Both the position numbers and the translations under genes were made by a program. 40,623 nt of DNA from Rubrivivax sp. (lineage in GTDB: Bacteria; Pseudomonadota; Gammaproteobacteria; Burkholderiales; Burkholderiaceae_C). Positions 3,353 through 29,272 of the stretch are shown here, one piece after another; position 1 is the stretch's first letter; each line of letters begins with the position of its first letter. Below the pieces are notes generated by a model that saw nothing but the letters and a program-made list of their open reading frames with translations, searched no databases and was not told the DNA's origin. Location: contig JBIJAP010000001.1 in the NCBI GenBank assembly GCA_044345715.1, positions 1 to 40,623 of the forward strand, given 5' to 3'.

Positions 3353-3364
3353 TTTCCGAGGAAA
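3353..3364. promoter_or_regulatory. Palindromic operator TTTCC-GA-GGAAA between the divergent amiC-like and marR genes
   Basis: Perfect inverted repeat in the divergent intergenic region; typical position for MarR autoregulation. Confidence 0.6.
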
Positions 3365-3413
3365 CTTCCGCAGCATAGAATCAGAGGCGGGGAAAATCAA
3401 TAACGCAACTCTC

Positions 3414-4244: not shown

Positions 4245-4617
4245 GTTCGCTCCCGGCCGCAGCGCCTGACGGCCCCGCATGGAAGAGCAGGTCTTCGACC
4301 ACCCGCCCGCAGAGCAGGTGCTGCTCGATGATGCGGTCCATGTCCGGCGGCGTGACACCCCAGTACCAGGCGCCGTCGGGCTGCACGCAGACCACCGGTC
4401 CGCTGCCGCAGGCACCCAGGCAGTCGGCGCGTGTGGGCTTGACGCGCAACGGCCCATCCGCCAGCAGTCCGGCCCGGATCAGCCTATGGCCCACGGCGTC
4501 CAGCGCTGCTGCGTCCATGCCGTCCGCTGCGCAGCGCCGGCCGGTGCACACCAGCAACTGGCGCTTGTAAGCCGGGAAGGCGGGTCGTGGCGGCCGTTGC
4601 CGCTGTACGTCGTTCAA
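4234..4617 (-). CDS. Thioredoxin-like [2Fe-2S] ferredoxin (second copy)
   Basis: LLVCTGRRC...DCLGACGSGPVVCVQPDGAWY; TTG start at 4617 is tentative. Confidence 0.85.
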   Translation of the reverse strand: MNDVQRQRPPRPAFPAYKRQLLVCTGRRCAADGMDAAALDAVGHRLIRAGLLADGPLRVKPTRADCLGACGSGPVVCVQPDGAWYWGVTPPDMDRIIEQHLLCGRVVEDLLFHAGPSGAAAGSEHEG

Positions 4618-4628
4618 GGATTCACCGG

Positions 4629-6716: not shown

Positions 6717-6737
6717 GGCGGACCCTTTCAGCTGCGA

Positions 6738-7220
6738 TCAGCCGCGCAACATGCACACCGCGCTGGTGCCATCGTGGTCGAAGACCGTCTTCTCGACATC
6801 GAGCTTCTTCACGACGCCGTCTTCGACGACCATCGAATAGCGCTCCGATCGGTCGTGCAGCCCGAAGGCGCCGAGGTCGGCGACCAGGCCGATGGCCTTG
6901 GTGAACGAGGCGTCGGCGTCGCTGAGCATCGTCACCTTGCCTTCGGCGCCATGCTGTCTGCCCCAGGCGTCCATCACGAACGGGTCGTTGACCGCGACGC
7001 AGACGATTTCGTCGAAGCCTGCTGCTTTGAGCTGGTCGTGGTTGGTGACATAACCCGGCAGGTGGCTGGCAGAACACACCGGCGTGTAGGCGCCTGGCAG
7101 GCCGAACAGCGCGACCTTGCGGCCGGCGAACAATTTGTCGGATGCAACGTCGGTGATGCCGGACACGGTGATGGTCTTGAATCGGCCTGCGGGCAGGCGG
7201 TCGTTGGTCTGAATGGGCAT
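6738..7220 (-). CDS. Peroxiredoxin (Prx5/redoxin type)
   Basis: PGAYTPVCSASHLP peroxidatic motif, VNDPFVMDAW, RSERYSM. Confidence 0.93.
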   Translation of the reverse strand: MPIQTNDRLPAGRFKTITVSGITDVASDKLFAGRKVALFGLPGAYTPVCSASHLPGYVTNHDQLKAAGFDEIVCVAVNDPFVMDAWGRQHGAEGKVTMLSDADASFTKAIGLVADLGAFGLHDRSERYSMVVEDGVVKKLDVEKTVFDHDGTSAVCMLRG

Positions 7221-7267
7221 GGCAGAGCTATCCTTCACTCAGGACTTGGGTCAGGTGGGGGGGAAGA

Positions 7268-8095
7268 TCAGGCGGCGCTGCGTTGCGCGGGGGGCTGGGG
7301 TGCTGTGCGCTTGTAGGCCAGCCATGCCCAGATCAACGCCATCAGGACGATGAGCGCCGCGCCGGTCAGCGTGAACGCCAGGTCATCGAGTTCGATCGCC
7401 GGCAACAGCGCCTTGCCGATGTTGTAGAACGCCACGCCGAACGAAATGGCGACGATCAGCCAGCCCAGGATGCGCCGGTAGCGAGGCCCAGCGGTGGCCG
7501 CCTGCGAGCTGCGGTTGACGTGGCAGATGAGCCGCCCGTCGAGCGTGTCGGTGATCACCATGCCGGCGGTGAACACCAGCCCGGCGGCCAGCGCGGCGAG
7601 CAGGCCGCCGCCTTTGATGCTGGCCACGTAGCCCCACGCCGACGCCTGCGTGGCGGTGTCGAAGACGGTGGCAAACAGCACGCCGATCGCGATCACCGCC
7701 AGCGGGCTGCCGTTGTTGCGCAGTCGCGCCGGAATCAGCCGCATCTTCCAGCCGGTCGGTTGGTAGTTCTGTTGCGCCCGCAGCAGCAGCCGCAGGTTGA
7801 GCGTACCCACCAGTAGCAGCAGCAGGGTCGGAATCCACTCGAACACCGTCACCACGCCGTCGGGCACGTGGATCTTCTTCGTCAGCTGGCTGACCGCAAC
7901 CGCGATCACCGTCACCAGCAAGCCGTGGCCGATGGCGAACAGCGTGCCGATCCACTTCGCATGCCGGTGCTGGTGATTCAGCGCCTGCCAGGTGAGGCCG
8001 TCGATGCAGGCGATATGGTCAGGGTCCAGGCCGTGGCGCAGGCCGAGTACGAACATCAGCACAAGGCCAGAGAAGGAGATCAGTTCAGCGTCCAT
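7268..8095 (-). CDS. HoxN/HupN/NixA (NiCoT) nickel/cobalt permease, NhlF-like
   Basis: GLRHGLDPDHIACID signature, FAIGHG, multiple transmembrane segments. Confidence 0.92.
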   Translation of the reverse strand: MDAELISFSGLVLMFVLGLRHGLDPDHIACIDGLTWQALNHQHRHAKWIGTLFAIGHGLLVTVIAVAVSQLTKKIHVPDGVVTVFEWIPTLLLLLVGTLNLRLLLRAQQNYQPTGWKMRLIPARLRNNGSPLAVIAIGVLFATVFDTATQASAWGYVASIKGGGLLAALAAGLVFTAGMVITDTLDGRLICHVNRSSQAATAGPRYRRILGWLIVAISFGVAFYNIGKALLPAIELDDLAFTLTGAALIVLMALIWAWLAYKRTAPQPPAQRSAA

Positions 8096-8131
8096 GGGGT
8101 GTTCTCCAGGAGGTCGAAGGGGATTTGCGAA

Positions 8132-9112
8132 TCACTTGGCGACGCAGTGCGCCAGGCCGGCGGCCAGCATCTCGCGATCGAGGTCACGGCCGATGACGAC
8201 GTACTCGGTGCGCCGCGGCTCGTCGTCGCGCCAGGCGTGGAAGCGAGCCATGGTCGTCAGCATGCGCACGCTCTGGAACACCACGCGCTCGTTGAAGCCC
8301 TTGGCGTTGAAGACGCCCTTGGTGCGCAGGTAACGGTCGCCTTCCTTCTGCAGCAGCGGCGATATCCAAGACATGAAGCGGTTCATGTCGACCGGCCGCT
8401 CTTCGCGCAGCACGATCGAGGTGATGGCCGCGTCGTGCTCGTGCGCGTGGTCGCCGAGGAACTCGGGGTCGACCTGCAGCTTGGCGTCGAGCTGGAAGGC
8501 ATTGACGCCGAGCACCAGGCCGAGGTCGATCACGCTGTTGGCACTGCGGTGCATGCGGGCCAGCGGGTTGAGCGAACGCACGCGGCGCTCGATGCGCTGC
8601 AACTGTTCTTCGTCGACGAGGTCGGTCTTGTTGACCAGCACGATGTCGGCAAAGGCCACCTGCTCCTGGGCTTCGACGCTCTGTTCCAGGTTCTTTTCCA
8701 GGTTGACCGAATCGACAACGGTGACGAATGCATCGAGCCGGGTGCCGGCGCGCACTGCTTCGTCGACGAAGAAGGTCGATGCCACCGGCGCCGGGTCGGC
8801 CAGGCCGGTGGTCTCGATCAGGATCGCGTCGAGATCGCCAGCGCGCTGGCGCAGCTTGTCGATCGTCGTGACGAGGTCGCCGCGCACGGTGCAGCACAGG
8901 CAGCCGTTGTTGAACTCGATGAGTTGCTCGTCGCCGTCCTGCTCGATCAGTTGGCCGTCGATGCCGATCTCGCCGAACTCGTTGACGATCACCGCCACCT
9001 TGCGACCCTGCTGGCCAGTGAGGATGTGGTTGAGCAGCGTCGTCTTGCCGGAACCGAGGTAGCCGGTGATGACGGTGACCGGGATCTTCTGCGCGGGGGT
9101 TGGTGCGGTCAT
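8132..9112 (-). CDS. CobW/COG0523 G3E GTPase metallochaperone
   Basis: [31 protein letters not shown]; CobW C-terminal domain. Confidence 0.93.
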
Positions 9113-9137
9113 GCGGTCGTTTCCTTGAGCGTTGCGT

Positions 9138-11129
9138 TCAATGGGCCACCAGGCGCACCAGCGCGTCGCCGGTGTGACCGGCCAAGGCGTCAGCGCGGTC
9201 GGCGATCAGGTAGTTGCGGCTGCCGAAGATGCGCCGCACGTAGGCGTCGGCCTGGCGGTCCAGCGTCAGGCAGAACGTGCGGATGCCCCGCGCCGCGGCG
9301 CTGGCCACTGCATGGCGCGCGTCTTCCACCAGGTGTTCGTCTTCGACCACGTCGACGTCGGACGGCTCGCCGTCGGTCAGCATCAGGATCACCTTGTGGT
9401 CCACCGTCTGGCCATCGAGCGCGGCGCTGGCGTGGCGCAGCGCCGCGCCCATGCGCGTCGACAGGCTGCCCTGCACGGCGGCCAGCCGGGCCTGTTGCTC
9501 GGCACCGAAAGGCTCGTCGAAATCCTTGATGCGCTGGTAGTTCACCTCGTGGCGGCCGTTGGAGGCAAAGCCGTGCACCGCCACGCGGTCGCGCCCGCTG
9601 TCCAGCGCCTGAGCGACCACGCGCGCAGCGCGCTTTTCGACCTCGAGCACGGTGGTGAAGCTACCCGGCACGAAGCGCCGGGTCGACACCGACAGGTCCA
9701 TCAGCAGCACGACCGCGGTGGCCCGGTGGCCGCGGCCGTGGCGGCGGAAGATGCGGCCGTCGGGCGCCAGCCGGGAGCGCTGCTGGATCGCGCCGTCCAC
9801 AGCAGCGGTGAGGTCGAGCTCATCACCCTCGGCGAGGCGGTTCAGCCGGATCGAGCGGTCTGGCGTCTGTTCGAGGCCGCGCACCCGTTGCGCCGACTTC
9901 TGTGCGAACCGGTTGACTGCGCCGCGGTGCGTTGCCGGGCCGCTTTCGATGACCGTCGCCCAATCTTCGCGTAGCGCGTCGAGCCGGTGGTCCCACTCGG
10001 GATGGCGGGTCCGGCGACGCGTGTCTACGTCGACGCTCGGCAGGTCGGGCGGCAGCTGGTCGCGGGGCCGGAATTCGTAGTCTTCTCGCGGCGCGGTGGC
10101 CTCGTCATCGAGCGGCAGCGCGGCGTTCATGTTCCACAGCAGGGTGTTGTCGTCGCGGTAGGGCGGCTGCGGGCGGTACGAGGGCAGCAAGGGCAGGCGC
10201 ATCTTCTCGACGTCGATGGCAAGCTGGCGGCCGATGGCCTCGAATGCAGCCACGTCGTGCAGGTCGGTGGCGGCCGCGTCTTCGAACAGGGCCCGGCCCT
10301 TGTTCACCCAGGCGTTGCTGTCGACGTAGGCCGGGTCGTGCAGTGCGCGCGCCAGCCGCGCGGCCAGGCCGGCGTAGTCGAATCCCGCGCTTTCGCGTGT
10401 GGCGGTGTGGAACACGCCCCACAGGCTGCGCAGGCCGGGGTAATCGCGCAGCATCAGGCGCTCGACGCGTGCGTCCTCGACGAGAGCGATGGTCGCCAGC
10501 AACATCGGCCGCCGGCTGCCCGCCAGCCGCGCCAACGGCGAGTGCCGCAGGTGCGCCGCGATGTGCGCGATGCTGGCGCGGTACAGCGCGGCCCGGTCGG
10601 CCTGGGTCGCGGCCACGGCGCAGCGGCGCGGGAAGCGGATCACGTCGTCGGCCACGGCGGGGGCGGGCGGCGGCTGGCCGGCGGCCTGCGGCTCGTGCAG
10701 CTCGATGCCGTGTGTCGTGACGCCGAAGCCGGCCAGGTAGGCCTGCAGCGCGACACGTCGTGCGAGCAGGTCGGCCGAGTCGGCGTCGGACTGCTGATCG
10801 GCAAACAGTCGCGGATCGTCGCGCTCGAAGTACTGCAGCCGCGCCTTCGGGTGGTGCTGGTGGCGCTGCAGGCCGTGCAGTGCCCACTTGCGCAGGCTGT
10901 TGGGGTCGGGCACGGTGGCGATCAGGTCGCCCAGGCGCAAGGCCAGCGCCAACGCGGCATCGGTTGCTTCGCTGGCGACCTGCGCCAGCAGGTCGACCAG
11001 CGCTGCGGCATCGGCTGCGGCCAGACCGTCGTGCCACGCCGGATCGGCGAGCAGGACATCGAAAGTCGGGCGGTCGATGCCGCGCAGCACGTCGAGCCGC
11101 CGCGTCAGCAGGTTGCCGTTGTCAGTCAT
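9138..11129 (-). CDS. CbbO/NorD-like VWA-domain adaptor protein (copy 1)
   Basis: [41 protein letters not shown]; ATGA overlap with the upstream AAA+ gene. Confidence 0.88.
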
Positions 11130-11941
11130 CGCCGCGGCCCGAACTGCGCTTCGACAAAGCCGGCGAGCGCGGCCTGCAGGTCGCGGTCGTCGGTGATCGG
11201 TGTCGTCATCGCCAGGGCGCACGCGTCGTGCACGGCAATGCCTTCGGCGATCAAGGCGCCGGCATGCACCAGCATGCGCGTCGAGATGCCTTCGTCCAGG
11301 CCGCGCCCGCGCAGCGCGCGCGACTGCTCGGCGATCTTCACCAACTGCAGCGCCAGCGCCGGGGTGACGCCGCTCTCGTGCGCGACGACCTCGGTTTCCA
11401 CGGCCGGCGGCGGGAAGTCGAAGTCAATCGCACCGAAGCGCTGGCGCGTCGATGGCTTCATGTCCTTGGCGACACTCTGGTAGCCCGGGTTGTAGGAAAC
11501 GACGAGCCGGAAGTCGGGGTGCGCCTTGACCAGTTCACCGCGTTTGTCCAGCGGCAGCATGCGGCGCTCGTCGGTCAGCGGGTGGATCACGACGGTGGTG
11601 TCCTGCCGGGCTTCGACCACTTCGTCGAGGTAGCAGATGGCGCCGTGGCGGACGGCGGTGGTCAACGGGCCGTCGTGCCAGACGGTGCCCTGCGCGTCGA
11701 GCAGGTAACGCCCGACGAGGTCCGACGCAGCCATGTCCTCGTTGCAGGCCAGCGTGATCAAAGGCCGCTGCAGCCGCCAGGCCATGTGTTCGATGAAACG
11801 CGTCTTTCCGCAGCCGGTGGGGCCCTTGAGCATCATCGGCAAACCGCGCGCGAACGCTGCCGTGAAGAGTGCGACCTCGTTGCCGGCGGCGCGGTAGTAC
11901 GGTTCGCGCTCGATCAGGTAAGGCTGGAGTGGGTTTGTCAT
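11126..11941 (-). CDS. CbbQ/NirQ/NorQ (MoxR-type) AAA+ ATPase (copy 1)
   Basis: GPTGCGKT Walker [11 protein letters not shown] Walker [23 protein letters not shown]. Confidence 0.95.
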
Positions 11942-12049: not shown

Positions 12050-13738
12050 TCAGGCGTGTGCCTTGGCCAGCTGCTTGGCGTCACCGCCGGGCGTCTTGAC
12101 CACGGTCTTGGTCATCATCGCGATGCCTTCTTCCATGATCACCTTGCGGTTCGGCGGCGGCAGCTTGTCACCGCGCAGCTGGTCGTAAGGCACGACCACC
12201 CAGCAGGCACAACCCCAGATGCACTCGCCGGCCATGCCTTCGAAGCGGATCGCCGGCTCCGACAGCATCGGGCCGATGTCGATCAGCCACGCGTGCTCGT
12301 ACAGCTTGGCTTCCCACTCCAGCGCGTCGTAGTTCTTCTGGCTGGCCCAGAAGGCCGTCAGGTCGGTCTTTGCCACCCCGGGCAGGATGATGTTGGCGTA
12401 GGCCGTCAGCGCGTCGAAGAACTCGTGGTTGTAGGTCTGGTAGGTCGAGTCGTTGGGCAGCAGGTAGTCCTTGGTGATCAAGTCCTTGAAGCCCTTGCTG
12501 AGCAGGTCGAAACCCATGTCGCGAGAGGCGTGAATATGGACTTCGGCGTAGTCGGTCTTGAACCCATCCTTCAGCCCGCTGTACTTCGGAACGAAGTCGA
12601 TCCACTGCGCGATCACCGAGTCCCACTTCGAGCCGGCTTCGCCCGGCAGCACCTGCACGCCCGGGTGGGTGAGCTTGGCGACATCGAACAGCGTCCAGTT
12701 GCGCGACTTGGCCGACAGTGTTTCGTGCGGTGCGCCGGTGAAGCCGGCCGGCCGCAGCGCGCGGAACAGCACACGGCCGTAGTCGAGCACGGCAAAACGC
12801 ATGAACGAGTCGGCGACGAAGCGGTTGGTCACCAGCTGCTTGAAGCTCTGGCGGACTTCCTTTTCGCCCGTGGTGGTGTATGCCGTCAGTCGCGCCCAGC
12901 TCTGCTCGGGGTTGACGACGAAGAAGCCGCCGGTGAACGGGCTGCGGTACAGGTCGCCCCAGACCGCCGTGACGCCGGCGTTCTTGTCGTCGTCGAGCAT
13001 GCAGTCGAGGTCGTTCAGCGTGGTGTAGGTCGTCGGGTTGTTGTAGTACTCGCCGTCGCCGCTGTGCGGCAGCTGGCCCACGCCGATGACCGGGATGCGG
13101 CGGCCGAGCTTGACATTCGACAGGTGGCGCGCAAGGTCGACGACCATGCCGCTGCCAGTGCCGCCGGCCATGCTGAAGGCGACCATCACCAAGGAGGGCA
13201 GCGTGGCCTTCTCGACCTGGTCGACGAAGTTGCGCAGCGCCACGTCGAGCGGACGCTCGCCGGCGTAGTAGGCGTTGGCGTAGATGCCCTTGGCCACCAC
13301 GCGCGGAATGTGCCCGCCGGCGGCCGGCATCTTGATCTTGTGCGGCACGTAGGACTCGAAGTTCGGGTTCCAGTAGTAGCGCGGGTACTCGAGCTTGAGG
13401 AATTCGCGGGTGCGGTTCAGGCCCTCGAAGAATTCCGCCTTGTCAGGGATCGGCAAGGCGATGGCCTGGAACTGGAAGCGCTCGAGCGGGATGCCACGCG
13501 ACTCGAGCCGCTTCTTGAACGAGTTGGCGTAGTCGATGACGACCCCCATGTCCTGATCGCCGATGTCGACGACCATCGCCGCGAAGGTGGCACGCGGGTC
13601 GGTCAGCAGGTCTTCGATCTCACCGGTGCGCAGCAAGGCCTCGATGTAGACCGCGCCGGTGCGGCCGATGCCGATGGCATGCAGGCAGTGCGGTGCCTGG
13701 ACGCCGGTGGCGCTGTTGTAGAGGGATGATGAGGTCAT
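12050..13738 (-). CDS. Tubulin/FtsZ-fold protein A (562 aa) with C-terminal CIWGCAC motif
   Basis: N-terminal IGIGRTG loop, FSMAGGTGSG tubulin-signature-like motif; GGAG RBS. Confidence 0.8.
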   Translation of the reverse strand: MTSSSLYNSATGVQAPHCLHAIGIGRTGAVYIEALLRTGEIEDLLTDPRATFAAMVVDIGDQDMGVVIDYANSFKKRLESRGIPLERFQFQAIALPIPDKAEFFEGLNRTREFLKLEYPRYYWNPNFESYVPHKIKMPAAGGHIPRVVAKGIYANAYYAGERPLDVALRNFVDQVEKATLPSLVMVAFSMAGGTGSGMVVDLARHLSNVKLGRRIPVIGVGQLPHSGDGEYYNNPTTYTTLNDLDCMLDDDKNAGVTAVWGDLYRSPFTGGFFVVNPEQSWARLTAYTTTGEKEVRQSFKQLVTNRFVADSFMRFAVLDYGRVLFRALRPAGFTGAPHETLSAKSRNWTLFDVAKLTHPGVQVLPGEAGSKWDSVIAQWIDFVPKYSGLKDGFKTDYAEVHIHASRDMGFDLLSKGFKDLITKDYLLPNDSTYQTYNHEFFDALTAYANIILPGVAKTDLTAFWASQKNYDALEWEAKLYEHAWLIDIGPMLSEPAIRFEGMAGECIWGCACWVVVPYDQLRGDKLPPPNRKVIMEEGIAMMTKTVVKTPGGDAKQLAKAHA

Positions 13739-13872: not shown

Positions 13873-14199
13873 TCAGCAGCGGATGGAAAAGGTCTCGGTG
13901 GCGTCGAGCACACCCAGGTCGCGCAGGATGTGCGCCACCGAGGTGGCGCGTTCGTTGGCGACGTACAGCATGTAGTCCTCGACGAACAGGCCCGGGTCAC
14001 GAGAAATGGTGCCGGCCTCGATCAGCTCGACACCCTTCTCGAGGTTGATGCGCTGCAGTCTGGCCTGCCAGATCGGCGACTCGATGTGGATCGCCTCGTC
14101 GTCGACAAAGGCGATCTTCAGGAACTTGCCCCCGGCCACCGTGGGCACCATGTAGCCTTGGCCGTATTTGTCGACGACCGTCTTCCAGTCCAGTGGCAT
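13873..14199 (-). CDS. Hypothetical protein (108 aa) between tubulin-like genes B and A
   Basis: AGGAG RBS before ATG 14199; protein-like composition; same strand as the operon. Confidence 0.8.
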   Translation of the reverse strand: MPLDWKTVVDKYGQGYMVPTVAGGKFLKIAFVDDEAIHIESPIWQARLQRINLEKGVELIEAGTISRDPGLFVEDYMLYVANERATSVAHILRDLGVLDATETFSIRC

Positions 14200-14228: not shown

Positions 14229-15755
14229 TCAGCCGATTTCGCCACGCAGTGCGTCCAGCGGCACCGCGATCCAGTGACCACCGTCGCCCAGACTCGCACC
14301 GGCCATGCCTTCGATGCGGCGCGACGGCTCGCACAGCAGCACGCCTTGTTCGAGCAGCAGCGCGTGCGACGCAAGCCGGTCGGCGGCGGGCATCGTGTCG
14401 TAGGCGTCACGTGCCCGCACGAAGAGGTCGAGGTCCGTCTTGGCCAGTCGTGGCAGCAGAAACTGCACGGTGCCAGCCGGCGCACCGGGCACAAGGTGGG
14501 TCGGCACCTCGGGCAGCAGTGCCGCGTCGAGCGCTTCGGCCCACGCCCTGGCGGTGGCGCTCGGATCATCGCCATCGGCCTGCCGAAGCTCGATGAACTC
14601 GGGCGCATAGCCCGGCAGCAGGCCCAGCGCCGCCGGCACATCGACACCGACCGGGGCCGTGTGTGCGCTGCCGAAGCCGAACAGGTGGATCCAGCGCGCG
14701 CCCCAAGGGGTGCGTGCAGCCGAATGTTGAGTCGAAGGCGCAGCCACCCAGTTCAACAGCCGTAGGGCTTCCCATAGGTTGGCGCCATGGCGGTGCTGAA
14801 ACAGCGACACCAACTCGGTGTTGACCACCGCGCGGGTCGACGCGACATCGGCCCCCGACGGCTGAGGGACGACCACGAAGCCGGCGGTGAACGGGTTCTT
14901 GTAGAGGTCACCACACGACAGCGTTACGCCGCGGTTCTTCTCTTCGTCACACAACACGTCGAGTTCGGCGAGCACCGGGAACAGCGATGCGCCACCGTCG
15001 GCCAGCGCCTCGTTGGCATGCGGCGCGATGCCGATGCCCGTGATGAGAACGCGGCGGCCGAACACGCCGTTCGACAGGTGGCGGGCGAGGTCGAGCGCGA
15101 TGCCGCTGCCGGTGCCTCCGGCCAGGCCGAACACCAGGCAGACCACAGCGTCGCCCTGGGTCGCTTCGACACTGCGGGCGAAACGCTTGAGCGCGGCTGC
15201 CATCGGCCGATCACCGTCGTAGTAGGCGCGGCCGTAGGCGGCTTTGGCCAAAGCCCGAGACTGCCGCTCGCCGACCCGCGCCGTCGCCGCTTGCGTCGGC
15301 AGCCAGGCCCCTGCGTCGGGGTTCGGGTGGTACATCGGGTACTCAAGCTTCAGGAAATCGCAATAGCTCGACAGCGTTTCCTGCAACAGCCCGGCTTCAG
15401 GCAGCGCGAGCGAGATCGTCTCCACCTGCGCACGGCTGGCGTCGAAGCGCCCGGCCAGGGTGCGCACCGCACCGAGGTCCTGCTCGCCGATGTCCACTGC
15501 CAGCGCCGTCAGACGCGAGCCGGGCACGTCGAGAAGGTCCGCTGGCGCGTCGCGCAGGAACTGCTCGACCACCCGGGCACCGGCACCGCCGACACCGATG
15601 AGATGCACGCCGAACGGCAGCGCAGCTGCATCGGCGATGCGATGCACGCCGCGCTTGAGTGCATCGAGCTTGCGCTGCTGGAGCTTGGCCTCGGTGCTGC
15701 CGATGGCCGGCGTCGGCCGGCCGCGCATCAGGTCGATTCCTGCGGTGACTGTCAT
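14229..15755 (-). CDS. Tubulin/FtsZ-fold protein B (508 aa)
   Basis: IGVGGAG, FGLAGGTGSG; shares FLKLEYP, DLARHLSN, PFTxGF and EGMAG blocks with protein A; start set at ATG 15755, downstream of the leader terminator. Confidence 0.8.
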   Translation of the reverse strand: MTVTAGIDLMRGRPTPAIGSTEAKLQQRKLDALKRGVHRIADAAALPFGVHLIGVGGAGARVVEQFLRDAPADLLDVPGSRLTALAVDIGEQDLGAVRTLAGRFDASRAQVETISLALPEAGLLQETLSSYCDFLKLEYPMYHPNPDAGAWLPTQAATARVGERQSRALAKAAYGRAYYDGDRPMAAALKRFARSVEATQGDAVVCLVFGLAGGTGSGIALDLARHLSNGVFGRRVLITGIGIAPHANEALADGGASLFPVLAELDVLCDEEKNRGVTLSCGDLYKNPFTAGFVVVPQPSGADVASTRAVVNTELVSLFQHRHGANLWEALRLLNWVAAPSTQHSAARTPWGARWIHLFGFGSAHTAPVGVDVPAALGLLPGYAPEFIELRQADGDDPSATARAWAEALDAALLPEVPTHLVPGAPAGTVQFLLPRLAKTDLDLFVRARDAYDTMPAADRLASHALLLEQGVLLCEPSRRIEGMAGASLGDGGHWIAVPLDALRGEIG

Positions 15756-15776: not shown

Positions 15777-15820
15777 AAAACGAAAAAAGCCCATCCGGCG
15801 CTGGTGTGCACCGGATGAGC
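15777..15820 (-). terminator. Intrinsic terminator (attenuator) in the leader of the tubulin-like operon
   Basis: Minus strand GCTCATCCGGTGC-ACACCA-GCGCCGGATGGGC followed by TTTTTTCGTTTT, about 20 nt before the start codon. Confidence 0.85.
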
Positions 15821-15856
15821 CTTGTTGCTCTGATCACCAACGGCCTTGATGCCGTC
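15817..15856 (-). promoter_or_regulatory. Dual hexaloop ANTAR (AmiR)-type RNA element
   Basis: GACGGC-AUCAAG-GCCGUU and GAGC-AACAAG-GCUC; the second stem overlaps the terminator 5' arm. Confidence 0.7.
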
Positions 15857-15912
15857 GCGATCATTCTGTCGACTTGTCGGATGGCCTGCATCCGACGTTT
15901 ACTGTGGAGACA

Positions 15913-15958
15913 ACGTTATGACGCGAGGCGTCGGCTGTCAAGACATTTCACATGGAAA
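15913..15958 (-). promoter_or_regulatory. sigma70 promoter TTGACA-N17-TAACGT with upstream operator TTTCCATGTGAA (15947-15958)
   Basis: Consensus -35 at 15941-15936, -10 at 15918-15913. Confidence 0.7.
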
Positions 15959-15976
15959 ATAAAAGACAGCGGGACT

Positions 15977-16364: not shown

Positions 16365-16715
16365 TCATGCCGGGTCGAGGTAGTCGTCGAACAGGTCCAC
16401 GCGCAGCGTGTCGGATACGTGAGCGTCTGCACCCCACACTTCGCGCGCACTGAAGTGCACGCTGTAGCAGTGCTGAGGCTTGTCGCCGAGTCCATGAGCG
16501 TGGGTGTCTGGGAAGGCGAACACGCCATGGTCCAGTTCGATCACGCCGATCTTGCCGCGCAGGTAGCCAGGCAGCCGGGTGTGCGTGCTTGGGTTGTGGT
16601 TGCGCACGCGGACCCGCTCCCCGCGCTGGAAGCGAGGTACCGCGTCGGCGGCGATGCGCGCCGATGCGCCGGTGGCGACGACGACGGGGACGATGTCGGG
16701 AGTGAGCAGCATCAT
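16365..16715 (-). CDS. nthB: Nitrile hydratase beta subunit, C-terminal (SH3-like) half
   Basis: RFQRGERVRVR...HTRLPGYLRGKIG...FPDTHAHG...YSVHFSAREVWG; own AGGAG RBS and ATGA overlap. Confidence 0.9.
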   Translation of the reverse strand: MMLLTPDIVPVVVATGASARIAADAVPRFQRGERVRVRNHNPSTHTRLPGYLRGKIGVIELDHGVFAFPDTHAHGLGDKPQHCYSVHFSAREVWGADAHVSDTLRVDLFDDYLDPA

Positions 16716-17038
16716 GGGGCTCCTGCCGCCGACGGCGACGCCTTCAACAACGCGATGCGGGCGTCGAGCTCTTCGCGCGACACGAAGCCGCGCTTGATCA
16801 GCGCTTCCTCGAAAGCGAACATCCAGTGTTCGTAGTACGACGAGTCGAGGTAATGCGCCGGGGCGATCTTCTCGATCGCGTGGCGGAACTCGTCGACGGT
16901 GTAGCCCGCAAAGACGAAGGTCGCGGCGAACAGGCCGAAGGCGCGGCCTTCCCAGGGCTCGTGAAACACCGGTTCGTTGGTTTCGGTCAGCACCGGGCCC
17001 AGGCCGTGCATCCCGCCGAGGTCGTGGATGCCGTTCAT
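16712..17038 (-). CDS. nthB: Nitrile hydratase beta subunit, N-terminal half
   Basis: [37 protein letters not shown]. Confidence 0.9.
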
Positions 17039-17658
17039 GCGCTGCGCTCCTGTCCGGTGCCGGGAGCCGGCAGCCGGGTCACGCCGATCATCGAGTCGCG
17101 TGTCACCAGCGCCGCCAGTGTTTCCTCGCTGAGGCCGTCGGTGCCGGCCGGCCGCTGCGGCAGCACCAGGTAGCGCAGTTCGGCGGTGGTGTCCCAGGTG
17201 CGGACCTCGACGCTGTCTGGCAACTCGGTGCCGAACTCCTTCAGCACGCCGCGCGGGTCGCTGACCACCCTGGCGCGGTACGGCGCGGACTTGTACCAGA
17301 CCGGCGGCAGGCCCAGCGTCGGCCACGGGTAGCACGAACACAAAGTGCAAACGACGACGTTGTGTACCGTGTCGGTGTTCTCCAGCACGACCATGTCTTC
17401 GCCCTGCAGGCCGGAGAAGCCGAGTTCCTTGATCGCGGCCGTGGCGTCGCTGAGCAGCCGCTGCCTGTAGTCGGGGTCGACCCAGGCGCGCGCCACCACC
17501 TTGGCGCCGTTGCGCGGGCCGATCTTCGACTCGTAGGTGTCGACCAGCACGTCCAGCGCCTTCGGGTCGATCAGGCCTCTTTCGGCGAGCAAGGACTCGA
17601 GTGCCTTGACGCGGATCGCGGCATCGGACTCAGGTGCGGTGTGTCGAGGGGGTGTCAA
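17035..17658 (-). CDS. nthA: Cobalt-type nitrile hydratase alpha subunit
   Basis: [11 protein letters not shown] (Thr/Tyr indicate Co-type), [22 protein letters not shown]; TTG start after AGGAGG is tentative. Confidence 0.96.
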
Positions 17659-17730
17659 GAGGCCTCCTGGTGGCACAAGCGGTCGGTCAGGGTGTGGAGA
17701 GGGGGAGACCACCCATGCCGCTTGAGAAAC

Positions 17731-18162: not shown

Positions 18163-19434
18163 TCAAGCCTGCTCCAGGACCCGGGCGCCTGCGTCGAGTT
18201 TGTCGAAACTGGCCTTGGCGGCCTTGTAGCCGGTCAGGTCGTCCTTGCTGGCGCCGGGCAGGATCACGTTGCCGTAGGCGGTGAGCACGTCGAAGAACTC
18301 GTTGCGGAACGTCAGGCAGTGGGCGCTGCCGTTCTTCAGGTAGTGGCTGGCAATCACGTCCTTCAGCCCGCTGTCGATCAGTTCCGGCTGCATCACGCGC
18401 GAAGCGTGCACGTGGATCTCGGCGTAGTCGGTCTTGAAGCCGTCGGCCAGCCCGGAGTACTTGGGCACGAAGCCGATCCACTGCTGGAGCACGGCGTCCC
18501 ACTTCGAGATCGCTTCGCCGGGCAACACCTGCACACCCGGGTGCGACAGCTTGGCGACGTCGAACAGCGTGCACTTGCCGCCGCTCTTTTCAAGCGCGCG
18601 CAGCAGATGCTCGCCGCCAGCGCTTGCGGCCCAGCGCATGAACGAGTCGGCGACGAAGCGGTTGGTGACCATCTGCTTGAAGCGCTGGCGCACCTCCTTC
18701 AGGCCGGTGCTGGTGTAGGCCGACAGCCGCTGCCAGCTCTGCTCCGACGAGATCACGAAGAAGCCGCCGCCGAACGGGTTGTCGGCCGCCTTCAGCGCGG
18801 TGTCCACCGCGTCGATGGCCTGGTACTGCGAGGCGCTGTTGAAGTAGTCGCCGTCGCCGCTGTGGCTGAGCTGGCCGACGCCGACCAGCCTGGCGCCCGC
18901 CGGCAGCCGGGCCGCCAGGTCGCGTGCCAGGTCGATCGCCATGCCGCTGCCGGTGCCTCCGGCCAGGCCGAACGCCAGGAACACGACCGACGGGCTTTCG
19001 CCGGTCTTCACGTGGTCGGCAAAGCGCTGCAGCAGACCGCCGACCGGTGAGTCGGCGCCCTTGCTGTTCAGCCCGAGGGTTGCCTTGGCGATGGCGCGCG
19101 GAATGTGTTCGCCGGCCTTCGGCAGGGCAACGCCTTTCGGCAGCTTCGGCAATGCCGATGCTGCGGGCACCGCCAACGCCACCGATTCGTAGTGAAAGCG
19201 CTCGGCCGGGATGCCGCGCGACTTCAGGCGTGCCTTCAGCGAACGGGCATAGTCGTCGGGCACCATGATGTCCTCGTCGCCGATGTCGATCAGCAAGGCG
19301 GCGAAGCTGGCGCCGGGCGCGGCAAGCAGGTCTTCGATCTCGCCGGTGCGGATCAGCGCTTCGATGTGGGCTGCGCCGGTGCGGCCGATGCCGACGGCGT
19401 GGATGCGGGTCGCGGCGCTGGGGTTGGTGTTCAT
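18163..19434 (-). CDS. Tubulin/FtsZ-fold protein C (423 aa), shorter paralog of protein A
   Basis: VGIGRTG, FGLAGGTGSG; long near-identical blocks with A (EALIRTGEIEDLL, VTNRFVADSFMR, HPGVQVLPGEA, GFKTDYAEIH). Confidence 0.8.
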   Translation of the reverse strand: MNTNPSAATRIHAVGIGRTGAAHIEALIRTGEIEDLLAAPGASFAALLIDIGDEDIMVPDDYARSLKARLKSRGIPAERFHYESVALAVPAASALPKLPKGVALPKAGEHIPRAIAKATLGLNSKGADSPVGGLLQRFADHVKTGESPSVVFLAFGLAGGTGSGMAIDLARDLAARLPAGARLVGVGQLSHSGDGDYFNSASQYQAIDAVDTALKAADNPFGGGFFVISSEQSWQRLSAYTSTGLKEVRQRFKQMVTNRFVADSFMRWAASAGGEHLLRALEKSGGKCTLFDVAKLSHPGVQVLPGEAISKWDAVLQQWIGFVPKYSGLADGFKTDYAEIHVHASRVMQPELIDSGLKDVIASHYLKNGSAHCLTFRNEFFDVLTAYGNVILPGASKDDLTGYKAAKASFDKLDAGARVLEQA

Positions 19435-19490: not shown

Positions 19491-21707
19491 TCAGCGCGAC
19501 AGCCGCAGCACCATCGGCGGCAGCACACGCGGCAGGCTGTCGATGCGGTCAAGCACGCGGTACTGGCCAGCGCCGAAGATGTGGCGCACGTAGGTGTCGG
19601 CGGCCGGGTCCAGCGTCACGCAGAACACGGCGATGCCACGGCGCCCGGCTTCCATCACGGCACGGCGGGCGTCTTCGACGAGGTAGCGGCGGTCGTGGAT
19701 GTCGATGTCGTGCGGCTCGCCGTCGGTGATGAACAGCAGCAGCTTGCGACGCCGAGCCTGTGCCGCCAGCCGCGTCGTTGCGTGGCGCAGCGCAGCGCCC
19801 ATTCGCGTCGACAGCCGGCTGCGCAACCCGGCGAGCCGGGCGAGGGCGCTGGCACCCACCGCGTCGCCGAAGTCCAGCGCGAGTTCGTAGCGCACTTCGT
19901 TGCGGCCGTTGGAGCAGAAGGCGTCGATGGCACAGACGTCACCGGCATGCTCCAGCGTCAGCGTGGTCAGCAAGGCGGCGACACGCGCCAAGTCGAGGAC
20001 ACTGCCGCCGCTGGCCACCGGGTCGGCGGTCGACGTGGAGCTGTCGATCAGCACCAGCGCGGCGACCTCGCGGTCGCGGTGGTCGAAACGCTGGTGGACC
20101 TTCTCGCCGGGCGGGTGGCGGCTGCGGCGTTCGATGGCCGAGCGCACTGCAGCGTCGACGTCCAACTCATCACCGCGCCACTGCGCCCGCAGCTTGACGC
20201 GTTCGCGCAGCCGGCCAGCGCGCAACACCTTGTCCAGGCGCTGCAGCAGCGAGGCGTGTTGTTCGAGTGCCGCCTGCAGCGCGGTGGGGTCCACACGCGC
20301 CGGCCGGCCTTCGAGCACGGTGCACCAGGCGCTGCGGTAGTCGCCAACCAGGCGGTCCCACTCGCGGTACTGCAACCGCGCCAGCGGCGATTCGGGGCTG
20401 CGTTCATCGGCCGGCGCGGCGCGGCCGCGGGGTGCTGCCTTGCCGTCGTCAGCCTGTGCGTCGTACTCGCGGTCGGTGTCGCTCTGCGGCGGCACCGGCA
20501 GTTCGTCGGCCACCGACTGCAGCTCGGGCGGGGTGTCGTCCGGGGGTTGCCAGAGGTGGCTGTTGTCGTCGCGGTAGGCCGGTTCGACGACGTAGTCGCG
20601 GTGGTTGAACTGCAAGCGCATCTGGCCGATGTCGTTGCCGAGCCTGGACGCGATGTCGCGCAGCAACGCCGGCAGCAGCGTGATCCGCCCGTTCTCGGTG
20701 GCCTCTGCGACCAGCCGCCGCGCCTTCACGACCCAGGGGTGCGGGTCGGCGTAGGCTGGGTCCAGCAGGCCACGCGCCAGCCGCAGCATCAACATGTTGA
20801 AAGACGTGCCGTGCGCCGGCTCGGCCACATGGAACGTCAACCACAGGCCTCGCAGCCCGGGCATTTCGGCACAAGCGATGCCTTCGACGCGGGCGTCTTC
20901 GAGCACACCGACCAGCGCCATCTGGATCGGCTTCAGGCCGCCACGTTCGAAGCGGTGCGTTGAATGGCGCAGGTGCGCTGCGGCGTGTGCCGCAGCGGCG
21001 TCATACCAGCGACGCGCCGCAGTACCGCGCAATGCCCGGCCGGCCTCGGGCAGGTGCAGCCCGAGGTTGCTGAGGAAGGGCCGGCGCGATGCCAACCCGT
21101 GCTCGATCGGCAGCAGCGCCGGGCTGATGTCGAACAGCGCCCGCAGCAGGTAGGCCAGCCGGCCCTTGCTGGTCGCCAGGTCACTGCCTGCAGTGCCATC
21201 CGTGCCGGGCGACAACACCCGCGTCGACTCGCGCGATCGCAGTTCGAAGTGCGCCAGCCGGGCGTCATGGCCGGCTTCATCGTTGTCGGGAACGACCTGG
21301 CCTTGGCGCAGCCCGAGCCGCGCCCACATCAACAACTCGGCCGGCGAGCCGTGGCGCAATACCTCTTCAGAACTGGCCAGCAGCGCCAGCGTGCATGGCC
21401 GCGCGTGTTCTGCCACCTCCTGCACCGCCGTCAGCCATGCCGCCAGACCGCCCGGCCCCGACAGCCGCGGCGCCAGCAGCGCCAGCCGCTGCACGATGGC
21501 GCCGAGCAGCGCTGCATCGGCACCTTGCAGGCGCAACGTGACCAGGCTTTCGGTCAGCATGTCGGCGGCATCGCCGTCGAGCGTGGCGTCGAGCACCTTG
21601 CGCGCGCGGCTCATCTCGATGCCAACGCTGGCAGGCAAGCCGGCGTCAGCCAGCGCGTCGCCCAAGGTCGCGAGCGGATGGCGAAGACGGCGTGGGTCGC
21701 TGCTCAC
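19491..21707 (-). CDS. CbbO/NorD-like VWA-domain adaptor protein (copy 2)
   Basis: [43 protein letters not shown]. Confidence 0.88.
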   Translation of the reverse strand: MSSDPRRLRHPLATLGDALADAGLPASVGIEMSRARKVLDATLDGDAADMLTESLVTLRLQGADAALLGAIVQRLALLAPRLSGPGGLAAWLTAVQEVAEHARPCTLALLASSEEVLRHGSPAELLMWARLGLRQGQVVPDNDEAGHDARLAHFELRSRESTRVLSPGTDGTAGSDLATSKGRLAYLLRALFDISPALLPIEHGLASRRPFLSNLGLHLPEAGRALRGTAARRWYDAAAAHAAAHLRHSTHRFERGGLKPIQMALVGVLEDARVEGIACAEMPGLRGLWLTFHVAEPAHGTSFNMLMLRLARGLLDPAYADPHPWVVKARRLVAEATENGRITLLPALLRDIASRLGNDIGQMRLQFNHRDYVVEPAYRDDNSHLWQPPDDTPPELQSVADELPVPPQSDTDREYDAQADDGKAAPRGRAAPADERSPESPLARLQYREWDRLVGDYRSAWCTVLEGRPARVDPTALQAALEQHASLLQRLDKVLRAGRLRERVKLRAQWRGDELDVDAAVRSAIERRSRHPPGEKVHQRFDHRDREVAALVLIDSSTSTADPVASGGSVLDLARVAALLTTLTLEHAGDVCAIDAFCSNGRNEVRYELALDFGDAVGASALARLAGLRSRLSTRMGAALRHATTRLAAQARRRKLLLFITDGEPHDIDIHDRRYLVEDARRAVMEAGRRGIAVFCVTLDPAADTYVRHIFGAGQYRVLDRIDSLPRVLPPMVLRLSR

Positions 21708-21731
21708 CGTGGGCTGGCCGACAACGCGGCG

Positions 21732-22583
21732 TCAGAACGACGCCGTGACGGCGGTTTCGAGCGCCTGCACCATGTCGGCGTCGTCGGTCATCGGATGCAC
21801 GATCGCCATCCGGCAGGCGGTGACGGGGTCGATGCCGCGTGACATCAGCGCGCCGGCGTGTACCAGCATGCGCGTCGATGCCCCCTCGTCCAGGCCGTGG
21901 CCCTTCAGGCGGCGCGTGCGCTCGCCGAGCGCCACCAGGCGGGCTGCATCGGCGGCGGGCAGCCGTGCTTCATGGGCAACGATCTCGGCCTCGATGGCGG
22001 CTTCGGGGAAGCCGAACTCGATGGCGGCAAAACGCTGCCGCGTCGAGGTCTTCAAGTCCTTCATCACCGTCTGGTAGCCGGGGTTGTACGAGATCACCAG
22101 GTGGAAGTCTGGGTGGGCGTGCAGCACTTCGTTGAGCTTCTCGATCGGCAGCATGCGGCGCGCGTCGGTCAGCGGGTGGATCACCACCGTGGTGTCGGCC
22201 CGGGCCTCGACCACCTCGTCGAGGTAGCAGATCGCACCGTGACGTGCCGCCAGCGTCAACGGCCCGTCCTGCCAACGTGTTCCTTCAGCGTCGAGCAGCC
22301 ATCGGCCGACCAGGTCGCCGGCAGTGATGTCTTCGTTGCACGCCAGCGTGATCAGTGGCTTGCCCAGCCGCCACGCCATGTGTTCGACGAAGCGGCTCTT
22401 GCCGCAGCCCGTCGGGCCTTTCAGCATCAGCGGCAGACGCAGCGCGTGCGCGACGTCGAACAGCGCGACTTCGCCACCGACCGCACGGTAGTAGGGTTCA
22501 CGCGTGATGCGGTACGCGGCGAGCGGGTCGGCCGGCGTGCCGGCCCCGCCCACCGGCCGCGACAACAGCGATGCCGCGGTCAT
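21732..22583 (-). CDS. CbbQ/NirQ/NorQ AAA+ ATPase (copy 2)
   Basis: [34 protein letters not shown]. Confidence 0.95.
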
Positions 22584-23707: not shown

Positions 23708-23752
23708 AAAACAAAAAAAGCGCCTGAGGAACAGGGCGTTCCTTCAGGCGCT
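23708..23752 (-). terminator. amiE leader intrinsic terminator (AmiR-controlled attenuator)
   Basis: AGCGCCTGAAGGAAC-GCCCT-GTTCCTCAGGCGCT followed by TTTTTTGTTTT upstream of amiE. Confidence 0.88.
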
Positions 23753-23784
23753 GATGCCGGGTTGCCGATCGACGGTGCTGTCGA
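23747..23784 (-). promoter_or_regulatory. Dual hexaloop ANTAR-type element of the amiE leader
   Basis: UCGAC-AGCACC-GUCGA and GGC-AUCAGC-GCC; the second overlaps the terminator 5' arm. Confidence 0.7.
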
Positions 23785-23806
23785 GCGCAAAAAAACTGAT
23801 GAGCGA

Positions 23807-23865
23807 AGGCTAATTTAGGGCGAGACAGACTGTCAAGCCTCATGCCAGAATATTTTCTGAGGAAA
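23807..23865 (-). promoter_or_regulatory. amiE promoter TTGACA-N18-TAGCCT plus operator TTTCTGAGGAAA (23854-23865) in the amiE/amiC divergent region
   Basis: Consensus -35 at 23836-23831; near-perfect palindrome upstream. Confidence 0.6.
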
Positions 23866-23907
23866 ACAACATCGACAGCTGCCCAAGCTCAGCAGGAGCG
23901 CCATCCC

Positions 23908-25071
23908 TTGGCCAACACCGACCCCATCCACGTAGGCGTGCTGTTCTCGCGCGCCGGCATCACCTCTCGAGTCGAGTACAGCCAACTGCTCGGTACGGAC
24001 TTCGCCATCCATGAGATCAACGCCGCCGGCGGCGTCGACGGCCGTGAACTGGTGGCCACCCATCTGGACCCCGAGTGCCTGCCGCAGAACTACCGCTCGA
24101 TGGCAGAGAAGCTGGTGCAGGATGAGCGCATCCGGGTGATCTTCGGCTGCTACATGTCGAGCACACGCAAGGCGGTGATGCCGGTCGTCGAGAAGTGGCA
24201 GCGGCTTCTGATGTACCCGACGCTGTACGAGGGCTTCGAGTACTCGCCCAACATCATCTACACCGGCGCTGCGCCCAACCAGAACAGCGCCCAGCTCGCC
24301 GACTACATGACACGGCACTTCGGCCGCAGGGTCTACCTCGTGGGCAGCGACTACATCTACCCGTACGAGTCGAACCGCATCATGAGCGATTTCATCCTCG
24401 AGCGGCCGGGCGGCGCCAAGCTCGCCGAGCGCTACGTGCGGCTGGACGCCAGCGAGCACGATTTCGCGACGATCGTTCGGGACATCAAGGACAGGCAGCC
24501 CGACTTCATCTTTTCCACCGTCGTCGGCCGGGGCACGCGCTTGCTTTACCAGGCGTATGCCGATGCCGGGCTCGACCCGGCACGCATGCCCATCGCCAGC
24601 CTGACCACCTGCGAGGCCGAGGTGTCCGAGATGGACCCGCGGACAGTCACCGGCCACATCACTGCTGCGACGTACTTCCAGACCGTAGACAGCGCAGTCA
24701 ACCGCCAGTGTCTCGAGCGGTTTCGATCGCTGTATGGTGACGCGATCGAGCCCAATATGTGCTGGGAGGCGGCGTACTTTCAGGTCCACCTGTTCGCTCA
24801 GGCGATGCAGCGATCCGGCTCCGACGAACTAGAGCGACTGCTGCCACACCTGCTCGGCAGCGAACTGGATGCACCGCAGGGCCGGGTCCGCATCGACCCG
24901 GCCAGCCACCACACCCGCTTGTACCCGCGCATCGGCAGGGTCGGCGACGACGGCCGGTTCGTCATCCTCGCCGAGTCGACGGTCGGCGTCGATGCCGACC
25001 CGTACCTCGTCCACCACGCTGCCAACGAATGGAGTATCCGCAACGTGGCGCTCGGAGACGTCGATGCCTAG
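23908..25071 (+). CDS. amiC: Amide sensor / negative regulator AmiC
   Basis: VGVLFS..G, GCYMSSTRKAVMPVVE, YPTLYEGFEYSPN, GAAPNQNS, GSDYIYPYESN; TTG start after AGGAG. Confidence 0.92.
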   Translation: MANTDPIHVGVLFSRAGITSRVEYSQLLGTDFAIHEINAAGGVDGRELVATHLDPECLPQNYRSMAEKLVQDERIRVIFGCYMSSTRKAVMPVVEKWQRLLMYPTLYEGFEYSPNIIYTGAAPNQNSAQLADYMTRHFGRRVYLVGSDYIYPYESNRIMSDFILERPGGAKLAERYVRLDASEHDFATIVRDIKDRQPDFIFSTVVGRGTRLLYQAYADAGLDPARMPIASLTTCEAEVSEMDPRTVTGHITAATYFQTVDSAVNRQCLERFRSLYGDAIEPNMCWEAAYFQVHLFAQAMQRSGSDELERLLPHLLGSELDAPQGRVRIDPASHHTRLYPRIGRVGDDGRFVILAESTVGVDADPYLVHHAANEWSIRNVALGDVDA

Positions 25072-25723
25072 GGACTGCGTCGATCGCGGTGTCGCGGGGC
25101 GGGTGCAGCGCTCCACACCCGACCTGTTGCGCAACCTGCGCAACGCGCGAGTGCTGGTGTTCCACCCGAAGGATGTCGACGGGGAACTGCTGGCCCAGCA
25201 ACTCGAGCGCATCGGCTGCCAGGTCATCACGATGTGGCCGCCGCTGGCAGAACTGCCCGACACCGTCGACGTGGTGTTCTGCGCCGTGCGGCCCGACCAT
25301 GCTGCGGTGCGGTGCCCATGGATGGAAGGCGAGCCGCCAGTGCCGGTGATCGCGGTCATCAACTACGAGAACCCGACGGTCGTCGATGCCGCCTTGCGGC
25401 TTGGCGCCAATGCGGTACTGATCAGTCCGCTGCGGTCGGCCGGCATCCTGTCCTCGCTGGCGATGGCCAAGCACCAGCATGCCGAGTTGCGCGACTCGCG
25501 CCGGCGTGTCGCGCGGCTGGAGCAGAAGCTGCAGTCGGCCAACCAGATCAGCACCGCCAAGGCGATCCTGGTGCGCACGCGCAACGTCAGCGACGAAGAG
25601 GCCTACCGGATCATTCGTGAGCAGGCCATGAGTAAGCGCGCAGCCACAGAGGAGATCGCCCGCGCGATCATCCATGCCGACGGCATCCTCTCGTACACAG
25701 CCCGGGGGGGAGGTCGATGTTGA
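25064..25723 (+). CDS. amiR: ANTAR antiterminator AmiR (pseudo-receiver + ANTAR)
   Basis: QLERIGCQV..WP, YENPT, C-terminal AKAILV...EEAYRIIREQAMSKR; overlaps the end of amiC. Confidence 0.92.
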   Translation: MPRDCVDRGVAGRVQRSTPDLLRNLRNARVLVFHPKDVDGELLAQQLERIGCQVITMWPPLAELPDTVDVVFCAVRPDHAAVRCPWMEGEPPVPVIAVINYENPTVVDAALRLGANAVLISPLRSAGILSSLAMAKHQHAELRDSRRRVARLEQKLQSANQISTAKAILVRTRNVSDEEAYRIIREQAMSKRAATEEIARAIIHADGILSYTARGGGRC

Positions 25724-28351: not shown

Positions 28352-28541
28352 GGCGCTTCACTCTACAGCCCATGACCACCGCTTGTCCGAAGATTGTGGC
28401 AATGGCAGGTGGGGCAAGCCCATGCAGCCTACGAAGCGCCGCGCGCCACGCAGGCGTCGATTCTTCGTCGAGCTGCAGGGCACAGTGATTGCGGCCTCGT
28501 CGGCAGCAACACCGTCAAGACGATCTGTGCCCTTCAACCGC

Positions 28542-29240: not shown

Positions 29241-29272
29241 GCGGTGTTCCTCCTGGTTGATTGCTTGGGCTG

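Follow-up and report, generated by a model that had tools for sequence, protein, structure and literature searches.

A conserved dual-hairpin attenuator, likely read by AmiR, ahead of a probable acetonitrile hydratase operon of tubulin-like genes in Rubrivivax sp.

The leader upstream of the first tubulin-like gene in our window, the whole 40,623-nucleotide stretch of Rubrivivax sp. DNA analyzed here, is a conserved dual-hairpin attenuator that is likely read by AmiR and would then switch on a probable AnhA-AnhE-AnhB-type operon when amide is present. AmiR is a namesake of the ANTAR proteins, yet its RNA determinants are poorly defined; the literature consulted describes the ami operon as its only target, and a 2025 review, in its accessible part, expects more (PMC12591593).

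Architecture, folding and conservation of the leader

The element is encoded on the minus strand, where the promoter TTGACA-N17-TAACGT claimed in a preliminary description of this DNA was found as a sigma70-type promoter-like site (15913–15941; -35 at 15941–15936, -10 at 15918–15913). Since its -10, TAACGT, matches the consensus at only three of six positions, it is absent from the output of a consensus sigma70 scanner; of 45 leader rows, 42 have a TTGAC-type -35 at most 200 nt upstream, the misses being L013, L014, and L018. Folding recovered both hexaloop hairpins of the same description, P1 (15832–15862; loop AUCAAG at 15850–15845, with closing pairs G-C/C-G) and the putative antiterminator hairpin P2 (15817–15830; loop AACAAG at 15826–15821), whose first loop bases are 24 nt apart. 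P2 lies inside an intrinsic terminator, as had been noted, which including its U tail spans 15777–15823 and has a stem of 16 pairs (15823–15786), a tail reaching 15777, and a 5' arm composed of the loop end and the 3' strand of P2. The 5' hairpin that had been listed as a further part (15876–15896) is present (folding z -3.5) but not conserved, and we rejected it as a functional part; the distance between -35 and loop 1 is so variable among homologues (38 to 178 nt) that many of them have no room for such a hairpin. Rfam matched no family in the tubulin-operon leader and no leader family in eight homologous loci, where the only match was an unrelated sRNA.

The tubulin-operon leader folds with -61.5 kcal/mol (z -7.5; none of 200 shuffles as good). 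At equilibrium, the terminator of the full leader has a pair probability of 0.999 versus 0.0002 for P2, and forcing P2 costs 7.1 kcal/mol; in a transcript cut at P2 both hairpins fold, while in the full-length leader the terminator folds instead. Likewise, the terminator was the minimum free energy fold in 45/45 homologous leader rows (one further row was left out), with a cost of 4–15 kcal/mol for forcing P2. The terminator is the default state of the leader, and P2 can form before the 3' arm of the terminator has been made and then excludes the terminator. The leader thus has the layout of an ANTAR attenuator, with two tandem hairpins of at least 3 bp carrying hexanucleotide loops, and a P2 that overlaps and excludes an intrinsic terminator. 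The amiE leader (minus strand, 23712–23787) is a sister attenuator with an overlapping terminator and the loops AGCACC and AUCAGC, which start at 23779 and 23755 and hence share the 24-nt spacing, as had been proposed.

Genome-wide, 14,991 P2-like hairpins were narrowed to 22 with an overlapping terminator and to five that also have P1. Two of these five are on this contig, and they alone combine a compact stem with at least six consecutive U residues, the tails of the remaining three being interrupted and U-poor. A looser genome-wide scan returned 29 matches, mostly poor. A genome search with an RNA model was discarded, as it scored 150 of 2,559 candidates, left both known sites unlisted, and placed two candidates lacking a terminator on top (contigs C515 and C369). 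Some contigs from RNA runs of related organisms cross the terminator, with possible DNA carry-over and unreadable ends.

The homologous set comprised 39 genome loci and two plasmid loci. Of these 41, 29 carry both hairpins and the overlapping terminator ahead of the homologous gene or operon, counts that are not independent because the loci are related; statistics on the P2 stem and on A1 are in addition partly set by the search pattern itself. In 18 of the positive loci the motif lies within ~430 nt, and in 11 it is located ahead of intervening genes, which are small genes annotated cbtB/cbtA (in L041), amiE, or a response regulator. The motif was not found at L010, L011 (415 nt available), L023–L030, L038, and RHA1; P1 is degenerate at L039, and loop 1 starts with G at L004 and L012. 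In a held-out set of 41 metagenome loci, scanned in the same way but with a tighter rule for P1, five loci had less than 10 nt upstream, and the full motif was present in 24 of the 36 with enough upstream sequence, several loci being near-duplicates; controls gave one match in 71 kb of antisense and none in 148 kb of downstream sequence. Among the 12 misses, three have, on visual inspection, the layout and a U-poor tail, and the other nine are 33–47% identical to the query.

An alignment of 12 orthologous leaders revealed 20 double-change cells in the terminator versus 6.3 in shuffled alignments (0/500), and five versus 1.4 (0/500) in the seven inner P1/P2 pairs, with shuffles that ignore the relatedness of the leaders. 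Both-side changes affect six of 10 terminator pairs, and 92.5% of the terminator cells and 96.4% of the inner P1/P2 cells are paired. P2 carries a compensatory A-U/G-C change in four of the 12 leaders, and pairs 2–5 of the P1 stem covary across 41 distinct sites. Column 45 covaries with column 33 in P2 while being kept paired to column 73 in the terminator, which reads as the signature of a two-state switch. P1, P2, and the terminator are hence maintained with compensatory changes, the outcome on which the preliminary description had made its interpretation depend. The P2 loop has 7 nt in nine of 41 homologous sites.

The dominance of the terminator at equilibrium, and the fact that our search gave no further strong terminator downstream of P14K, could also be read as an ordinary terminator that ends the upstream amidase/NHase transcript, the small hairpins being incidental. 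We consider this highly improbable: the terminator is situated downstream of the conserved -35 and ~20 nt ahead of the start codon of tubulin-like gene 1, such that it would block the operon's own promoter, it persists in loci that have other genes upstream, and P1 and P2 covary and retain a spacing of 23–27 nt in 41/41 distinct sites. A conserved attenuator remains our preferred reading.

Some loci deviate in their upstream arrangement. Two or three tandem whole attenuators precede the first tubulin-like gene at L013 (9549–9964), L071, and L014 (1–154). The AmiR-bearing loci L010 (1570–1760) and L038 (9760–9950), which are devoid of the attenuator, share another upstream element consisting of a -35 and a conserved hairpin, for which Rfam gave no match. 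At L032–L037 (~8750–9800) the attenuator lies ahead of a FixJ/LuxR-like response regulator ORF (translated for L033), and a repeated GGGTAG..CTACC-type site is found between this ORF and the tubulin-like gene.

A second layer of control may act at the promoter itself. Just upstream of the -35, the palindrome ATTTTC-N4-GAAAAT occurs with two mismatches (15945–15960). Allowing up to two mismatches, only nine sites exist in the 3.6-Mb genome, three of them at cluster promoters (3351–3366, 15945–15960, and 23852–23867), with weaker copies at 2037 and 17732. The palindrome is found at the same leader position in L001, L015, L016, L017, and L019, and at the RHA1 amidase promoter it coincides in part with the -10 region. 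The MarR gene of the cluster (3312–3851, plus strand) is divergent from that of an AmiC-like sensor (2109–3335, minus strand), the pair being associated with the copy at 3351–3366; MarR orthologues were present in 5/5 genomes tested, with a weaker palindrome beside the marR start in four of the five. Judged from these positions, the palindrome is probably the operator of the cluster MarR.

Candidate reader and loop code

A cognate ANTAR protein is encoded 9 kb from the leader. AmiC, the amide-binding negative regulator (23842–25071, plus strand), and AmiR, a pseudo-receiver plus ANTAR antiterminator with AmiR_N and ANTAR domains (25106–25723, plus strand, start approximate), have the P. aeruginosa proteins as their best solved relatives (AmiC, 1PEA, E 7e-93; AmiR, 1QO0, E 5e-21), and both genes are divergent from amiE. 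A covariance model built from eight amiE/amiC-type leaders, all of other genomes, scored the amiE leader of the window with 27.5 bits and the tubulin-operon leader with 19.8 bits (E 0.005), the next site reaching 13.4 bits. Given 32 loci, the model found 16 of 20 foreign anh-type leaders, and it gave no match in seven motif-negative loci or at the NasT locus. By this measure, the tubulin-operon leader can be assigned to the same RNA class as the amiE/amiC leaders.

AmiR_N is found in the genome or record of 26 of 29 motif-positive versus four of 12 motif-negative loci, a comparison in which most negatives belong to a single marine group, the genomes are in part incomplete, and RHA1 is represented by its plasmid only; we therefore take this co-occurrence as supportive rather than as statistical proof. 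L010, L011 (415 nt available), L028, and L038 have AmiR and no motif before the gene, and the motif-positive loci without AmiR_N are three MAGs. The proposal that the tubulin-like genes belong to the AmiR regulon, with AmiR binding and amide induction as its presumed steps, is supported by a true AmiC/AmiR pair, a conserved leader of the ami class, and the presence of AmiR_N at most motif-positive loci. The tubulin-like genes are probably not bystanders but would encode a nitrile hydratase that makes amide, the ligand of AmiC. As to AmiR-linked plasmid regions lacking tubulin-like genes, an intergenic P2 with overlapping terminator was seen in seven of nine, four of which also carry a P1 that passes the scan; AmiC/AmiR-linked plasmid operons with ABC-transporter and amidase genes (L100 at 5761, L101 at 5761, L096, L097, L047–L049) combine P2 plus terminator with non-canonical loops.

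The loops differ from the published code. ANTAR sites are described as having A1 and G4 in both loops, with G4 being obligatory for EutV and NasR and the rule stated to hold for amiE as well, as far as the accessible parts of these sources go (PMC3369931, PMC7496416, PMC8934654, PMC3369936). Both loops of the tubulin-operon leader have A1 and the closing C-G pair, and across 41 distinct sites loop 1 has A1 in 37 and the closing C-G in 40. G4, the EutV/NasR consensus, is replaced by A4 in all four loops of the window, and we accordingly class the tubulin-operon leader as a variant rather than a canonical ANTAR site. Position 4 is A in 26 and G in eight first loops and A in 34 and G in five second loops of the 41 distinct sites, and A in 19 and G in one (loop 1) or A in 21 and G in one (loop 2) of 23 held-out sites; G4 is commoner in loop 1 of ami-type leaders (7/14). 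For P. aeruginosa, the amiE P2 as printed in Fig. S1 of Ramesh 2012 has the loop AAAUGG with no G4 when read by eye with the full 5-bp stem, while that paper, in its accessible part, says that this P2 conforms to the G4 rule (PMC3369931); a preprint, as far as accessible, reports that canonical motifs were not found at AmiR-like operons (10.1101/2024.02.22.581678).

In the EutV-RNA structure, G4 stacks on Tyr164 and is hydrogen-bonded by Arg142, Lys149, and Glu160 (PMC8934654, accessible part). The EutV-142 position is occupied by M, V, I, or A in 16/16 distinct AmiR-type segments, with Ala in the AmiR of the window, and by Q in P. aeruginosa AmiR; it is R in NasR and in the NasT-like protein of this genome. 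Tyr164, Arg168, and Met172 (EutV numbering) are kept in 17/17. From this pattern we infer that A4 loops are causally tied to the loss of the G4-binding arginine. As they possess no arginine to hydrogen-bond G4, AmiR-type proteins are likely to recognize loops of the form GC-A-N-N-A-N-N-GC instead of the A1/G4 type of EutV, NasR, and NasT.

The same residue bears on who reads the leader. The genome encodes a second ANTAR protein above the family cut-off, NasT-like and located on contig C289, in addition to a weak third match, and ANTAR proteins are reported to bind similar RNAs (PMC7496416, accessible part), so that the switch might be read by the NasT-like regulator and tie the operon to nitrate/nitrogen status instead of amides. 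This appears quite improbable to us, as the NasT-like protein has retained the Arg that reads G4, a canonical G4 loop (AAUGGC) was seen by eye in the leader that follows its gene, the ami-type model gives no match in this locus, and the motif tracks AmiR_N across loci. With AmiR as the preferred reader, the sites offer a testable rule that pairs protein residue 142 with loop base 4, which would explain how two ANTAR systems coexist without cross-talk.

The putatively regulated genes and the surrounding cluster

The operon behind the leader consists of three minus-strand genes in the order alpha-AnhE-beta, with full-length homology to a trio of RHA1. Tubulin-like gene 1 (14229–15755; 508 aa), a probable ANHase subunit without the Cys motif, is the homologue of the RHA1 55.8-kDa protein (39% identity); a 108-aa ORF (13873–14199), probably the AnhE cobalt chaperone, corresponds to the 11.1-kDa protein (37% over 99 aa, E 2e-28); tubulin-like gene 2 (12050–13738; 562 aa), with the Cys motif and a predicted tubulin/FtsZ fold, corresponds to the 63.0-kDa protein (49%). 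In RHA1, the 55.8-, 11.1-, and 63.0-kDa proteins are encoded by three consecutive pRHL2 genes in the same order, next to amidase, MarR, AmiC-like, nickel-type transporter, and acetyl-CoA hydrolase genes, and databases name them only 'tubulin-like' or 'hypothetical'. The primary ANHase papers reportedly describe a pRHL2 location, subunits of 63 and 56 kDa, an 11.1-kDa AnhE, and the same neighbours. We take the pRHL2 trio to be anhA/anhE/anhB, with which masses and neighbours are consistent; judged from these data, it is very likely the acetonitrile hydratase AnhA-AnhE-AnhB. The accessible parts of the literature describe RHA1 acetonitrile hydratase as an alpha-AnhE-beta system in which AnhE is a cobalt chaperone and the enzyme holds Co, Cu, and Zn (PMC3511329, PMC7193024, PMC3680314, PMC3766881), and it is also mentioned elsewhere (PMC6941271, PMC7329996).

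NCBIfam has no family for the window trio, and no solved structure was found to resemble the 108-aa ORF. The NHase families of classical Co/Fe nitrile hydratases gave no match on the tubulin-like proteins; an NHase_alpha search of the RHA1 plasmid was uninformative, as its controls, too, remained without match. Gene 2 has the invariant motif C506-x-W-G-C510-A-C512, reminiscent of the NHase cysteine cluster. The C-x-W/L-G-C-A-C motif is confined to gene 2 here, is carried by both genes of L008, L031, and the marine group, and is limited to the first gene in RHA1; a third tubulin-like paralogue of the window (18163–19434) has none. It seems that the role of metal-binding subunit has passed from one paralogue to another.

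A predicted model of gene 2 (pLDDT 84.8) matches tubulin, FtsZ, and CetZ in Foldseek (E about 1e-9; TM 0.5–0.6 by target), while in Pfam the Tubulin scores stay below the cut-off and Tubulin_2 exceeds it for gene 1. The complex prediction for tubulin-like proteins 1 and 2 scored 0.01. With a predicted fold matching tubulin, FtsZ, and CetZ over most of their length, GxGxxG and GGGTGSG-like nucleotide loops that are kept, and a classical NHase in the same window, the regulated genes might encode cytoskeletal or scaffold tubulins (e.g., positioning classical NHase or amidase) rather than an enzyme. The T7 loop GxxNxD is the motif of polymerization-coupled hydrolysis, and a pattern search found it in none of the three window paralogues. 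Together with an invariant Cys triad, a constant association with genes for CobW, NicO, and amidase, the lack of a classical NHase within 10 kb at many loci, and full-length homology and synteny with the RHA1 trio, this makes a scaffold role unlikely, and a tubulin-fold cobalt nitrile hydratase is the likeliest reading of sequences and predicted models.

Downstream, the minus strand continues with genes for a CbbQ-type AAA protein, a vWA protein, CobW, a NicO transporter, a peroxiredoxin, a TonB receptor, and a 2Fe-2S ferredoxin (3876–11941), which are probably co-transcribed with the tubulin-like operon and would serve cobalt uptake and maturation; the gene types recur near homologous loci. 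Beyond the ferredoxin follow the divergent MarR/AmiC-like pair and a signature amidase. The upstream part of the strand comprises the aliphatic amidase gene amiE, a CbbQ-type AAA and a vWA gene, the third tubulin-like gene, NHase alpha, split beta, P14K, and the leader. The two CbbQ/NorQ-type AAA plus vWA pairs, one at the tubulin-like genes (9138–11941) and one at the amidase (19491–22583), possibly represent dedicated maturation or repair chaperones. The classical NHase genes (16365–17712) are separate from the tubulin-like genes, and their beta gene (16365–17038) is split into N- and C-terminal ORFs. Because the same split occurs in L009, L015, L016, L017, and L019, we take it to be a genuine split type, comparable to the enzyme of Streptomyces canus (PMC7329996, accessible part), and not an assembly error. 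A phage-type integrase (32291–33658), a T5orf172 protein, and tRNA flank the cluster (28500–35223); integrase, tRNA, and a patchy distribution, with no gene 1 found among 400 further genomes of the family, suggest that the cluster is a mobile island.

Proposed mechanism and comparison with known systems

Applying the AmiC/AmiR amide logic of P. aeruginosa (PMC12591593, PMC13531289, PMC3369931, accessible parts), AmiC would hold AmiR without amide, and transcription from the local promoter, together with any read-through from the upstream amidase/NHase genes, would stop at ~15780. Amide would free AmiR to bind P1 and then P2, and with AmiR on P2 the polymerase would read through into the hydratase and cobalt-handling genes. 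The product of the hydratase, an amide, would in this way induce its own enzyme together with the amidase, and the MarR operator likely adds control at initiation.

A broader notion, to which we assign an even chance, is that the AmiR clade has its own RNA code of A4 loops, paralleled by the loss of the G4-reading arginine, orthogonal to NasT/NasR/EutV in the same cell, and unseen by canonical searches. With this code it would run a nitrile/amide regulon of several operons across Proteobacteria, the central enzyme of which would be a tubulin/FtsZ-fold pair turned cobalt nitrile hydratase. If true, this would be a metabolic metalloenzyme built on a cytoskeletal scaffold. The findings attach a function to a family labelled 'tubulin-like' in databases and direct attention to an unexplored class of proteobacterial nitrile hydratases whose fold is probably that of tubulin/FtsZ; the attenuator sites also supply parts for amide biosensors.

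The mechanism class is already known. In the literature searched, which was of limited reach and included few subscription papers, we met nothing on ANTAR-controlled nitrile hydratase, an A4 code, or a tubulin-fold ANHase, nor the second target operon; some of these leaders may be included in the supplementary hit lists of Ramesh 2012. The closest relative is the P. aeruginosa amiE/AmiC/AmiR system, with orthologous AmiC and AmiR, two hexaloop hairpins of which P2 overlaps the terminator, and the same amide logic (PMC12591593, PMC3369931, accessible parts). The window differs from it by a second target operon with its own promoter, a loop spacing of 24 instead of 27 nt, A at loop position 4, amiCR being divergent from amiE, and a probable MarR operator. 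With E. faecalis eut and K. oxytoca nasF (EutV, NasR) it shares geometry, A1, the closing C-G pair, and several attenuators per cluster, and the L. monocytogenes eutV P2, as given in the accessible part of PMC3369931, differs from P2 of the window only at loop positions 4 and 5; unlike in eut/nasF motifs, A replaces G4 in most sites of the window type, and the cognate protein is without an Arg142 equivalent.

On the enzyme side, the RHA1 trio that is very likely ANHase is alike in its large-small-large order (39/37/49% identity), in its amidase, MarR, AmiC-like, and Ni/Co transporter neighbours, and in the promoter palindrome common to both. In contrast, the RHA1 plasmid is devoid of AmiR_N and attenuator, the Cys motif is in the first gene there and in the second gene here, and the window adds a motif-less third paralogue and the classical NHase. 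Tubulin, FtsZ, and CetZ resemble the window proteins in predicted fold and nucleotide-loop motifs, from which the latter deviate by an identity of 10–14%, the missing GxxNxD, a C-terminal Cys motif, and a metabolic gene context.
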